Program-made: the position numbers | NCBI RefSeq assembly: GCF_017348835.2 | Contig: NZ_CP072314.1 | Source: Escherichia coli | Lineage (GTDB): Bacteria > Pseudomonadota > Gammaproteobacteria > Enterobacterales > Enterobacteriaceae | Length of the DNA: 60,072 bases | Direction: 5' to 3' (one strand) | Shown here: positions 31,901 through 37,900 of the stretch, piece by piece | Numbering within the stretch: the first letter of the stretch is position 1 | Layout: each line of letters begins with the position of its first letter

Positions 31901-34900
31901 GGCATACAGCAACAGGAAAATGCGGCGAATAAGAACAATAATACAGATTACAAGACCAATAATCAGGTTTCATCATTTGAACAACCTGACTGGGAAAATC
32001 GTCTGTTTAGGTTCAAAACATTGAATCTGATAAATTCAGACTTTATTGTTGGTCGTAATGCCATTGTTGTTGGTGATATTTTTGCCAATAATTCCACTCT
32101 GTCTTTAAGTGGAAAAGATACAAAAGTACATATTGATATGTATGACGGCAAAAACATCACGGGAGATGGCTTCGGTTTTCGGCAGGATATTAAAGATGGC
32201 GTGTCTGCTTCTCCTGATAGCAGCAGTTATTTTGGAAACGTGACACTGAATAACCACTCATTACTGGATATTGGTAATAAATTTACAGGAGGAGTAACAG
32301 CAACTGACAGTACAGTCACCGTTACCTCCCAAAACGCAGTCTTGAGCAATGGAGGTGTTTTCGCAAACTCCGGGCTGAATATTAAGGATAATGGCCATCT
32401 CACTGTCCAGAGCGGACTTCTGAGTGACAGCAGTAGTAATATAAATATCGCTACTGGACAGTTAACATTGACCGGTACTCCTTCTGGAAAATTAAACGAC
32501 AGTTTCCTGCCCGCGATATACATTGCTGATGGTGGATTTAAGTTAAATGATGACAAGGCTGTTCTGGCTGCCCGGGATATGGCATCCGTAAACGGTGATA
32601 TCACATCAGAAAAAGCAGCAACCATTCAGTTTGGTTCTGAAAAAAATATCAGCACAGACCCGTCTGTCAGCCCTGTGCTGACCACAGGTTTACTGCAGGG
32701 ATTCAATACCGCTTATCAGGGAAGAATTAACGCTGCACAAAGTAGCGCCACCATGCAGAATACCTGGTGGCAGGTATCTGGAGACTCTGTGCTCAAATCG
32801 CTGAAAACCAGTGACAGTATGGTGCAGTTCACCGGCAAAAAGGGGTTCAGCACACTGACAGTGGATAAACTGGATACAAACAACAGTGTTCTGGCTTTAC
32901 GGACAAACCTGAACAGCGCTGACCACCTGACAGTTAAAGATAGTCTTACGGGTAAAGATAACACCCTGCTGGTTGATTTTATGCAAAAACCAGAAAACGG
33001 AAATCTGAATGTTGAACTGGTCAGTGCACCAGATGGCACTGCTGGCGACGTATTCCGGGCCGGGACCAGGAACATTGGCTTCAGCAAAGTCACGCCGGTA
33101 ATCAACACGGAAAAAACTGATGACGCCACAAAATGGGTCCTGAAAGGGTATCAGACAGTCTCTGATGAAAATGCAACGAAAACCGCAACGGACTTTATGG
33201 CGTCAGGTTATAAATCCTTCCTGACAGAGGTCAATAACCTGAACAAGCGTATGGGTGACCTGCGGGATACTCAGGGGGACGCCGGCGTCTGGGCGCGCAT
33301 CATGAACGGTACCGGTTCGGCAGATGGTGGTTACAGCGATAACTACACTCACGTTCAGATTGGTGCCGACAGAAAGCATGAGCTGTACGGTGTGGATTTG
33401 TTCACGGGTGCATTACTGACCTATACAGACAGCAATGCAAGCAGCCACGCCTTCAGTGGTAAAACCAAATCCGTGGGGGGAGGGTTGTACGCTTCAGCAC
33501 TCTTTGATTCCGGGGCTTATTTTGACCTGATTGGTAAATATCTCCATCACGACAATCAGTACACGGCGAGTTTTGCGTCTCTTGGTACAAAAGACTACAG
33601 CTCTCATTCCTGGTATGCCGGTGCAGAGGTCGGGTATCGTTACCACCTGTCGGAAGAGTCCTGGGTGGAGCCACAGATGGAGCTGGTTTACGGTTCTGTG
33701 TCAGGAAAATCTTTTAGCTGGGAAGACCGGGGAATGGCCCTGAGCATGAAAGACAAGGATTATAACCCACTGATTGGCCGTACCGGTGTTGACGTGGGAA
33801 GAACCTTCTCCGGAGACGACTGGAAAATTACCGCGCGAGCCGGGCTGGGTTACCAGTTCGACCTGCTGGCGAACGGAGAAACGGTTCTGCGGGATGCATC
33901 CGGAGAGAAACGTTTTGAAGGTGAAAAGGACAGCAGAATGCTGATGAATGTGGGGATGAATGCGGAAATTAAGGATAATATGCGTTTTGGCCTGGAGCTG
34001 GAGAAATCAGCGTTCGGGAAATATAACGTGGACAATGCGATAAACGCCAACTTCCGTTATTCTTTCTGACAATTTTATTAAAATACACCTTCTTAAAGGA
34101 GATGTATTGATTCAAAATACTTATTAATGGTTTAATGTGGGATTGTTAAATGATTAGCAACATTAGTTCTGCGTTATCGAGTATTTCTCGTGGTATAGCG
34201 ACTGCAGTTCGAAGCAGTAGTTTCTCTGTATCACCGCAAAAAGTGTCACTAACCCCTGTAAAGATTAATTCGCCTTTCTCCCCGAGCAATAGTTCCCTTA
34301 GCGCAACAAGGCTTTTTACAGCCCAAAATTCCCCCCTGGTATCAGGCTCTTCCCGTTCTGCATCGCTTCATCAGCCAGCAACAGGTGGTGGTTCTGCTGC
34401 CCAGCCACTTCCGGATGTAGCACAGCGTCTGATAGACCATCTTGCAGCACATGGTATTCAGCCAGCCCGGAATATAACGACATCCTCGCCTCTGACTCCT
34501 AGCCGACCGGCACCACCGCCGCCTGTATCAAATGAAGCATCTCAGCCATTGTCGGACATAGCACAGCGTCTGATAGACCATCTTGCAGAGCATGGTATTA
34601 AGACTTCGCGTAATTCCTGATTACGGGGTCATTAATGGGCCTTCCCCGAGCATGTTGGGAAGGCTCAGAATGCTATATTCAGTCTCCCATAGTGGAGCAT
34701 CACTCCCGGCTTAAAGGTAAGCTGGCTCACCAGAACCGTATTGATATTTATTGAGAGGTCAGTTCAACTTTCCAGGGCAACAGATCGCGTACCCGGTTTG
34801 CCGGCCAGTCCTGGATATGCTCAATAACGTAACGCAGCCATTTTTCCGGCTCCACATTGTCCAGACGGCACGTGCCGATCTGTGAATACAGTGCCGCCGC

Positions 34901-37900
34901 ATGTTCGCCGCCACTGTCGGAACGCGCGAACAGCCAGTCTTCAGCCCGTAAACCGTTACCGGCCTCACTTCCCCGTGAAACCCGGGTTATCCGGCCGGAA
35001 GAGTAATGCTGTCCTGCCTGTGGTGGCGAACTCAGTTCTCTGGGATGTGATGTGTCAGAGCAACTGGAGCTTATCAGCAGCGCCTTTAAGGTTATCGAAA
35101 CACAACGTCCGAAACTGGCCTGTTGCCGGTGCGACCATATCGTGCAGGCACCGGTGCCTTCAAAACCCATTGCACGCAGTTATGCCGGAGCGGGGCTTCT
35201 AGTCCATGTTGTCGCTGGAAAATATGCAGACCATCTGCCGTTATACCGCCAGTCAGAAATATACCGTCGTCAGGGAGTGGAGCTGGACCGTGCCACACTG
35301 GGGAGCTGGACAGGTGCAGTTGCTGAACTGCTGGAGCCGTTGTATTACGTCCTGCGCCAGTATGTGCTGATTCCCGGTAAAGTCCATGCCGATGATATCC
35401 CCGTTCCGGTCCAGGAGCCGGGCAGTGGTAAAACAAGGACTGCCCGGCTGTGGGTCTACGTCCGTGATGACCGTAATGCCGGTTCACAGATGCCCCCGGC
35501 GGTCTGGTTCGCGTACTCACCGGACCGGAAAGGTATCCATCCACAAAATCATCTGGCCGGTTACAGCGGTGTGCTTCAGGCCGATGCTTACGGTGGTTAC
35601 CGGGTGTTATACGAATCCGGCAGAATAACGGAAGCCCTCCAGCGTATCGGTGAACTGTATGTCATCGAGGCAGAAGTCCGGGGATGTTCAGCAGAACAGC
35701 GTCTGGCAGCAAGAAAAGCCAGAGCTGCGCCACTGATGCAGTCACTGTATGACTGGATACAGACTCAGATGAAAACACTGTCGCGTCACTCGGATACGGC
35801 AAAAGCGTTCGCATACCTGCTGAAACAGTGGGAGGCCCTCGAGTAGGCAGCCTGGTGGCTGCGGCTTGTCATGGTCTGAGATTACCGTTATAAAAACAGG
35901 CAATATCATTGTCTTTCAGGTGGTTATATGGCCCGTTCAGCTAAACCCCGTAAACGAAAACCTTCCCCACAACGAAGTAAACTTCCCCGCTATGTCGTGA
36001 CGCTTCACGACGATGACTTCTTTGACGAAGAAGACGCAGAAGTTCTGCGCTTTGATAGTTTTGACGATGCCGTTGAATGCTGCGCAGACCTGAATATTCC
36101 GTTCTTTGTGGATGCGGGAAACAAAAAGCTGGTCTTCTGGTTTGTACGTGTTGATGACGAAGGGTATCCGGAAATAGCCCGCTGCACGGAGCGGGAGTTT
36201 GCGACCATTCTTGCCGGTATCAGCGCCGGCGGTATGTACTGTCCGGAATGCGGCACGGTTCACTGGCCGCACGGAGTCACCCCGCCCTTCTGATGCTTCC
36301 CCGTTTTGCCGATATTTTTCAGCAGGGAAACCGCTGGCTTAACTGGCTGGAGAAGCAGCCGGAAGGGTCTGTGCGTCCGGTGGTGATTGAGTCGGTGACA
36401 AAAATCATGGCGTGCGGAACCACGCTGATGAGGTACACGCAGTGGTGCTGTTCATCACCGGACTGTTGCTAATTTAAGTGATATTGGTTGTCTGGAGATT
36501 CAGGGGGCTATAGTGCCTTATAGCTGTGGTATGACATTCAACAATTCCTAAAAATGACAAAAATGTAATCCTTATGTAAGGTTCTATTGAAACAGGATGA
36601 ATAAAATCATTATTCATATAAGAATTACGTCTGGTATATAAGAGGATATTCATATATGCTATATAAATAATTCAGGTTAATGACAGGTGCGATAAAAATT
36701 ATACTTGTGATGAGCAAGACAAAATCACAAGTTACGTCGCAAACATTTTTATTATTTTACTCTTCCGAGATGGTAATATTCATGAATAAAAGAATAGTTC
36801 ATCTAATTTATTTTTTACTCTTGCTACAGCCATTAGGGATATCATATGCCAGTGTGGAAACAAGTAAACATAAATCAGATTCTGAAGCTGTTTTTGAGAA
36901 AAAAATGCATGAAACAATGAATAAAATGCATCATGAAATGCTTAATTATAAGGTTACAGGGGACAAAGAGCTGGATTTCCTGAAAATGATGATCCCTCAT
37001 CATCAGGCAGCTATAGATATGTCACGAGTTATTCTTGAAACATCCGAAGATAGAGAAGTAAGGAATTTAGCTTATTCCATAATTACAGAACAAAATAATG
37101 AAATTAATATCATGAATAAACTTATCGAGGGTAAAAAACATGAAATTAAATAAGATTGCGCTCGCAATATGCTTGGTGTCATTTAATTTATATGCAACTG
37201 ATCTTGTCTATTCGGCAAATCAAAATGGTAACACAGTTTCTGTGGTTGATGCCAATACATATAAGAATGTCGGAAGCTTAATCTTAGGATATCCCGCAGG
37301 AGATAAGCGACTATATAGTCCTCTTTATAATGGAGAAATAAACGTACATGGCCTTTCATATGCAAAAAAAAGACGTGAACTATCCGTAGTTTCAACTGTA
37401 ACAAACTCTGTTACACGATTCGATACAAATACAGGAAAAAAAATCGATACGATATATGTTGGACGAAACCCACATGAGCCTCGATATACTAATAATGAAG
37501 ATGAGATATGGGTAACTGTCAGAGGTGAAAACTATGTATCAATTATTGATAGCCAGAATGGAAAAGAAAAAAAACGTATAGTGCTTGAGTCTGGCCCAGG
37601 AATGGTTACTTTTAGTCATGATGATAAATATGCATATATTAGCTCCAGTTTTGATGGTCACCTATGGATTGTTGATACAAAAACCAAAAAGATCATAAAA
37701 AAAATAATGATGCCATCTTCATTTTCTCCATTCATCAATACAACACCAGATGGAAAGGAAGTATGGGTTGATCATAAAGACGTTGGTGAGATTACAAGAA
37801 TCAGTACTGAAAGCAATGAAATTATCGAAACATTCAAAACAGGAAAAATCAGTAACCACTTTGCATTTGCAAATAATAAAGCTTATGTGACGGTTGGTGG

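Follow-up and report, generated by a model that had tools for sequence, protein, structure and literature searches.

Insertion-sequence relics at the boundary between a SPATE/effector block and a low-GC segment of an Escherichia coli IncF virulence plasmid: a scar of several layers

How did a block of virulence genes become joined to a plasmid segment of much lower GC content? The question is raised by a stretch of 60,072 nucleotides from Escherichia coli (RefSeq assembly GCF_017348835.2, contig NZ_CP072314.1), here called the window, whose informative part (12714-56462) belongs to an IncF E. coli virulence plasmid. From 34100 to 37200 it is 100% identical to plasmid pPE164 (NZ_CP114129.1; pig, China). 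An earlier note, made from the sequence alone, had placed a rearrangement scar of insertion sequences (IS) at 34748-36512, between a block encoding a serine-protease autotransporter (SPATE) and a low-GC islet. The region was well chosen, but not its start: the IS66 terminal repeat (GTAAGC...) with which the scar begins lies 31 bp earlier, at 34717. The segment 34717-36510 (~1.8 kb) is very probably a non-functional, multi-layer IS scar that joins the SPATE/effector block to a low-GC backbone segment. It consists of four relics: a minus-strand and a plus-strand piece of IS66 (A and B), the left end of an IS91 that combines two variants (alpha and beta), and a scrap of IS2. The features are, in order:

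34717-34939, minus strand: IS66-A relic, with the right terminal repeat (GTAAGCTGGCTCACC..., from 34717) and the last ~64 codons of tnpC (~460-523), stop at 34748-34750
34935-34939: junction of A and B, a 5-bp microhomology (CCAGT) common to both parents, from a three-way alignment against the A and B references
34935-35839, plus strand: IS66-B relic, ISCro1-like, tnpC codons ~105-432
35840-36469, plus strand: IS91 relic of 630 bp, with terIS (CGAG), the Porf121 -10 box TATAAA (35889-35894), orf121 (35928-36293) and tnpA codons 1-59 (36293-36469)
36371-36417: crossover interval within the IS91 relic, alpha type (= copy 2 of the window) upstream and beta type (36418-36469, = contig L012) downstream, from a base-by-base comparison with L012, L010 and L011
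36470-36508, minus strand: IS2 left inverted-repeat fragment of 37-39 bp, outer side facing the islet, terminal 7 bp (TAGACTG on the IS2 strand) missing
36509-36560: start of the low-GC islet, onset at ~36509-36511; homology to the IS-free islet copies (L004, L005) starts at (CTA)TAGTGCC

That IS66, IS91 and IS2 are all present is borne out by Pfam/NCBIfam and BLASTN matches far above chance. Every piece aligned to the family proposed for it, and the breakpoints were mapped to the base. The three larger pieces (IS66-B, IS91 and IS66-A) are pseudogenes in the RefSeq/PGAP annotation of pPE164. An Rfam scan of 34000-37200 gave no RNA family, and a sigma-70 consensus scan of 34600-36800 gave no promoter, with a tool that demands T at position 6 and thereby excludes the Porf121 box TATAAA.

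The two IS66 pieces are indeed opposed and non-contiguous, A on the minus strand at 34717-34939 and B on the plus strand at 34935-35839. As BLASTN reference we used the intact IS66-family element of pE92-2 (L002; tnpC at 3688-5259). Piece A, which starts 96 bp past the stop codon of an espF-like gene, aligns on the minus strand (34717-34941) to positions 5289-5066 of this plasmid, that is tnpC from codon 460 to the stop plus the 30-bp terminus, at 88% identity, and the end of its open reading frame (34751-34960) matches Pfam DDE_Tnp_IS66_C (E = 3.6e-14). The terminal inverted repeat is of the type GTAAGC(G) and is present at one end only; its sequence at 34717, GTAAGCTGGCTCACCAGAACCGTATTGATATTT, agrees with the right end of IS66-B in pZ1323HEC0423-2 (L003), read outside-in. 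Piece B aligns with codons 105-339 (34933-35636, 96%) and 362-432 (35628-35839, 94%) and is 95-96% identical to elements named ISCro1-like by PGAP. Its open reading frame at 35052-35846 matches Pfam DDE_Tnp_IS66 (E = 1.8e-63), zf-IS66 (E = 3.1e-07) and NCBIfam transpos_IS66 (E = 7.5e-78); all these IS66 domain matches are to fragments only. B also has an in-frame TAA at 35004-35006, and PGAP calls it a pseudogene with an internal stop in pPE164. The 66 bp (22 codons) missing within B lay between 9-bp direct repeats, ACGGAAGCC, of which one copy remains (35628-35636); such a loss is the signature of replication slippage.

The earlier note had derived both pieces from a single IS66-type transposase. 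The family stands, the common source does not: to judge from the sequence, A and B come from two different elements and not from one inverted copy. An inversion with endpoints inside one element would agree with two pieces that are adjacent, opposed and non-overlapping in tnpC (codons 460-523 versus 105-432), but this origin can hardly be right and is refuted by pZ1323HEC0423-2. This plasmid has the same A/B junction, and there B runs through the codons absent here to its own stop and terminal repeat, so that A is not the missing end of B; the two 3' ends are only 89.8% identical. Moreover, the same reference gives 88% for A and 96% for B, and no intact IS66 copy more than 91.4% identical to A occurs in 5426 complete E. 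coli genomes, in which A itself is found at >=95% identity in only ~19 records. The simplest origin of the two-element arrangement would be a deletion between two head-to-head IS66 elements, an ancestor that we infer. No homology to tnpA or tnpB of IS66 was found in 34600-36700 or in the rest of the window, and no target duplication, which in the IS66 family measures 8 bp and would here have pointed to a composite unit, links the outer flanks of A (gcttaaag, in the window) and B (caacgggt, in pZ1323HEC0423-2), the far end of each being deleted.

IS91, of the HUH/rolling-circle type, occurs on virulence and IncF plasmids of E. coli. The relic lies directly behind B, which ends at 35839; IS91 begins at 35840 with CGAG, the complement of the terIS cleavage site 5'-CTCG. 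The segment 35836-36469 is 98% identical (BLASTN) to the annotated IS91-family element of pE92-2; the window has another IS91 copy in inverted orientation (26651-26021), to which the relic is 98.9% identical. The orf121 gene is intact, with 121 codons, and ends in cTGATGc, a one-base stop/start overlap. Because this overlap is canonical, tnpA starts at 36293 and retains 59 codons, in agreement with the 177-bp pseudogene called by PGAP in pPE164. The truncation had thus been recognized correctly, not its length: the proposed ~75 codons correspond to the 74 obtained when counting from an upstream in-frame ATG. Homology to IS91 does not extend past 36469, and the oriIS end is absent; a complete HUH transposase is not present, and the match to Pfam Zn_Tnp_IS91 is weak (E = 0.0088) and below the cut-off. 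The orf121 architecture, the TGATG overlap, the CTCG cleavage site, the targets GTTC and CTTG and the Porf121 TATAAA box are described in PMC13181058, and the -10 box was identified here solely by reference to that paper.

Both IS91 copies of the window begin with CGAG directly after non-homologous flanks. The uninterrupted site of the relic is found in pZ1323HEC0423-2 (...gaggccct^GAACgtg), and that of copy 2 (terIS end at 26651) is intact in pZ1323PEC0007-2 (L009; ...cggtagt^CAAGtta). IS91 inserts at GTTC or CTTG without target duplication; the complements of these tetranucleotides, GAAC and CAAG, are placed where oriIS would abut, an adjacency deduced from the empty sites. From the canonical target sites and the precise CGAG ends, both copies arrived by ordinary site-specific insertion. 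Copy 2 (alpha, ~24000-26651, minus strand) is interrupted by ISEc31 and sits at CAAG in what is a gene of 373 aa in pZ1323PEC0007-2. The relic and copy 2 form an inverted pair whose terIS ends bracket the 9.2-kb block with the genes for EspT, SPATE and the EspF-like protein.

Such an arrangement could suggest that IS91 captured this block by one-ended (rolling-circle) transposition and that the scar is a by-product. The terIS end of the relic, at which read-through takes place, does face the block, the copy at 26651 faces it from the other side, and read-through at terIS is documented at 1-10% (PMC13181058). Nevertheless, capture is exceedingly improbable, and we rejected it on the empty sites and the precise junctions: both terIS junctions are exact at CGAG, empty sites with the expected GAAC and CAAG targets exist in relatives, and the block is present, in one piece and between the same flanks, in pZ1323HEC0423-2 and pZ1323PEC0007-2, which lack IS91. 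Since the block is intact without IS91 in relatives and the sites are empty, IS91 arrived after the block was in place. The product expected from capture, a block joined to the oriIS-proximal target tetranucleotide without terIS cleavage, was seen in none of the relatives.

If IS91 entered B by ordinary insertion, how was it joined to the islet? The relic (35839-36469) and copy 2 show no difference over 579 bp and then seven in the last 52 bp, all at 36418-36454. The calculated chance of such clustering is (52/631)^7, ~3e-8. Four of the variant bases are common to IS91 variants on plasmids of enterotoxigenic E. coli (L010, L011). When metagenome contigs were scanned for the junction of IS2 and islet, a single one matched, VOFK01000873.1 (L012). 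From 36371 onwards, across the IS91/IS2 junction and the IS2 scrap and into the islet, this contig does not differ from the window. Further upstream, positions 36328, 36367 and 36370 are of the beta type; IS91 homology starts only at ~36293, beside an IS3-family element, and neither orf121 nor IS66 is present. By base-by-base comparison the IS91 stump is a chimera of a resident alpha IS91 and an older, diverged beta relic of 177 bp. As this contig has the IS91/IS2/islet junctions without IS66 and orf121, the beta relic would have pre-existed on an islet-bearing backbone, apparently joined by then to the IS2 scrap and the islet, independently of the SPATE block. The join of SPATE side and islet side is a homologous crossover between diverged IS91 copies and not an illegitimate deletion. 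Neither the 3' end of B nor the remainder of IS91 occurs elsewhere in the window. Either an intramolecular deletion or a plasmid fusion with loss of the reciprocal junction may have given this outcome.

The remaining piece, between IS91 and the islet, is of IS2 origin, as proposed, but it is not a 35-bp terminus: it is an inner piece of 37-39 bp, cut on both sides, that lacks the outermost 7 bp. Over 36472-36508 it agrees in 36 of 37 bases with the annotated IS2 of the window (left end, 50277-50313; aligned over 50266-50321) and in 37 of 37 with what we take to be the interior of the canonical IS2 left repeat; a search with the IS2-end pattern had no match in any of 100 shuffles of the window. 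After GGGGGC the IS2 terminus CAGTCTA is absent, and the islet sequence (CTA)TAGTGCC stands instead. On the IS91 side IS2 is broken at position ~46, with a loose microhomology (GACT.T..C). Around 36470-36508 there is no further IS2 homology and neither orfA nor orfB.

A solo end left by an adjacent deletion through the IS2 transposase comes to mind, for the piece is of left-repeat origin and its position coincides exactly with a deletion junction. Such a deletion should, however, leave an intact terminus, and here the outer 7 bp are gone and the inner side is broken. Neither of the two boundaries coincides with an end of IS2; they are thus not the work of the transposase, and the solo-end explanation is very unlikely. 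It is likelier that the scrap was left by two illegitimate deletions or, just as possibly, that a single microhomology-mediated repair copied it from an IS2 as templated filler. No ancestral full IS2 beside the islet was found in PLSDB and the complete E. coli genomes, and the single metagenome match has the same truncated scrap. A lookalike of the IS2 repeat ~55-75 bp upstream of the islet in L004 and L005 was dismissed as chance (alignment score 16 versus 16.9 +/- 2.4 in shuffles). The IS2 copy of the window (~47688-50321, minus strand) is itself broken at 48805-50114 by another IS3-family element, of which a second copy lies at 18377-19686.

The earlier note had read the boundary between SPATE block and islet as the result of multiple insertion and deletion events, and related plasmids do show the junctions gained stepwise:

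Terminus of A beside the espF-like gene: pZ1323HEC0423-2, pOkiPb01684_1 (L006), pZ1323PEC0007-2 (only ~100 bp of A) and the window
A/B junction and 66-bp deletion: pZ1323HEC0423-2, pOkiPb01684_1, AP029606/AP029610 and the window
IS91 in B: pOkiPb01684_1, pPE164 and the window
Full chain IS66-IS91-IS2-islet: pPE164 and the window only

This nested sharing supports a stepwise order, and the scar is best explained by at least seven events. First, IS66-A would have inserted 96 bp downstream of the espF-like gene; second, the ISCro1-like IS66-B would have lain head-to-head with it. Third, an illegitimate deletion at CCAGT may have removed the 5' parts of both, which left the 3' end of A facing the internal tnpC of B. 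Fourth, B would have lost 66 bp by slippage between the 9-bp repeats and also gained its stop codon. Fifth, an alpha IS91 probably transposed into tnpC of B at the GAAC target. Sixth, and separately, a beta IS91 would have been cut to 177 bp and joined via the 39-bp IS2 scrap to the low-GC islet, by a mechanism that we can only infer. Seventh, a crossover of alpha and beta IS91 at 36371-36417 would have fused the two contexts and removed the remaining IS91 and the 3' end of B.

Several points weigh against this scheme. The third and fourth steps may have come in either order, both lesions being present in every relative that has either. Neither a full-length A nor a head-to-head A/B ancestor was found among the relatives. 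Only a single independent sequence, the metagenome contig, speaks for a pre-existing beta relic. Finally, positions 10240-11340 of pOkiPb01684_1 match the window at 26651-25551 (99.8% over 1101 bp), an IS91::ISEc31 junction that sits at the IS66-B site in that plasmid and at the other IS91 site in the window; one lineage must then have undergone a further exchange or inversion between IS91 copies, for which the seven steps have no place.

Could the scar be produced by long-read assembly, by chimeric joins between repeated IS copies? The assembly gives some reason to ask. The ends of the window (1-12713 and 56463-60072) are of aberrant composition, with T up to 51%, G down to 1% and stretches without C or G. 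Tested as base-converted plasmid copies, they resemble the plasmid core nowhere, even by 7-mer BLAST, and have no match in the 5426 complete E. coli genomes and PLSDB; they look like long-read assembly junk and not like biology. In addition, pPE164 is full of frameshifts. An artefact is nonetheless almost inconceivable at the scar: the A/B junction and the 66-bp deletion recur in independent assemblies of plasmids from other hosts and countries, pZ1323HEC0423-2 (Korea), pOkiPb01684_1 (Japan) and AP029606/AP029610, the IS66-B/IS91 junction is also present in pOkiPb01684_1 and the IS91/IS2/islet junctions in the metagenome contig, and the junctions bear biological signatures, namely a target tetranucleotide and microhomologies.

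Between its ends the window contains a direct repeat of 2165 bp (12714-14878 and 54298-56462; 99.95% identical) with a spacing of 41,584 bp; pPE164 is of about this size (41,684 bp). What the window really contains appears to be one circular plasmid of ~41.6 kb, read more than once around. Two inverted, 100% identical copies of ISEc31 are located at 24636-25895 and 45165-46424; the arc that they enclose has the opposite orientation in pPE164. In the window one ISEc31 sits directly between the two halves of IS91 copy 2, as after a simple insertion; in pPE164 these halves lie apart.

On the side of the virulence block the scar is preceded by the following genes:

28005-28589: EspT (IpaB/EvcA family), upstream of the scar
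30086-34069: SPATE of 1327 aa with Peptidase_S6, ESPR and Autotransporter domains, upstream of the scar
34150-34620, plus strand: intact EspF-repeat protein of 156 aa (Pfam EspF, E = 7e-26)

The N terminus of the EspF-like protein resembles EspF of the locus of enterocyte effacement by NCBIfam, under the cut-off. Its gene adjoins those for EspT and SPATE, and PGAP gives only a partial pseudogene in pPE164 and pOkiPb01684_1. A fragment of a group II intron reverse transcriptase/maturase (29236-29607), partial according to PGAP in pPE164, lies between EspT and SPATE. On the other side the GC profile drops from 0.53 to 0.31 near 36500 and stays at 0.31-0.36 downstream. The islet (36680-39400, GC 0.31-0.36) encodes a DUF305 protein, a YncE-like beta-propeller of 354 aa, which is in two parts in pPE164, and a substrate-binding protein. 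The islet also occurs, with no IS at its edge, on pSTEC299_1 and an O170:H18 plasmid, where it adjoins a RelE/ParE toxin-antitoxin pair and RepFII.

The Porf121 -10 box, which has been defined by experiment, and the orf121 gene of the relic recur as an identical copy in the second IS91 (26651-26197), and tnpA is destroyed in both. According to recent work, Orf121 inhibits the IS91 TnpA in trans and suppresses one-ended transposition (PMC13181058). It is tempting to speculate on a role for the two predicted-expressible genes: an orphan Orf121, if expressed from the plasmid, may damp IS91 activity in the host and stabilise the flanking virulence block, although we consider this improbable. The two genes are candidate trans-acting regulators of IS91, and this is the forward-looking point of the locus. 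The mapped breakpoints can serve as lineage markers for IncF plasmids with EspT, SPATE and EspF-like genes, and a virulence block tied to an islet/RepFII backbone by recombination of diverged IS91 copies makes a textbook case of IS relics as portable homology. Beyond such bookkeeping the importance is small.

How does the scar compare with known systems? ISCro1/ISEc8-type IS66 elements carry tnpA-tnpB-tnpC. B resembles them in tnpC (95-96%) and A in its C-terminal domain and GTAAGC repeat; unlike them, the scar has two parent elements and no tnpA/tnpB, A has no close intact relative (91% at most, among the complete E. coli genomes), and B is interrupted by a stop codon and has lost 22 codons of its DDE domain. 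With the IS91 prototype (X17114) the relic shares the CGAG terIS, the TATAAA box, the intact 121-codon orf121, the TGATG overlap and insertion 5' of GAAC, and with annotated IS91-family copies 94-98% nucleotide identity. Of the ~1.8 kb of IS91 it keeps 630 bp, with tnpA cut after 59 codons, no oriIS and the last 52 bp from another variant, and it cannot transpose. Compared with IS2, a member of the IS3 family, the scrap is without the terminal 7 bp, orfA/orfB and the right repeat and is not an end. Virulence plasmids of the pINV, pO157 and pB171 type are IS-rich mosaics. Module boundaries on the virulence plasmids of Shigella and of enteropathogenic and enterohaemorrhagic E. coli likewise show SPATE, EspT or EspF-like genes bracketed by nested, truncated IS66, IS91 and IS3-family relics on an IncF backbone. 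The scar is an ordinary, largely annotated IS graveyard at such a boundary; there is no qualitative difference from the others, and only the combination of breakpoints is peculiar to this plasmid lineage.

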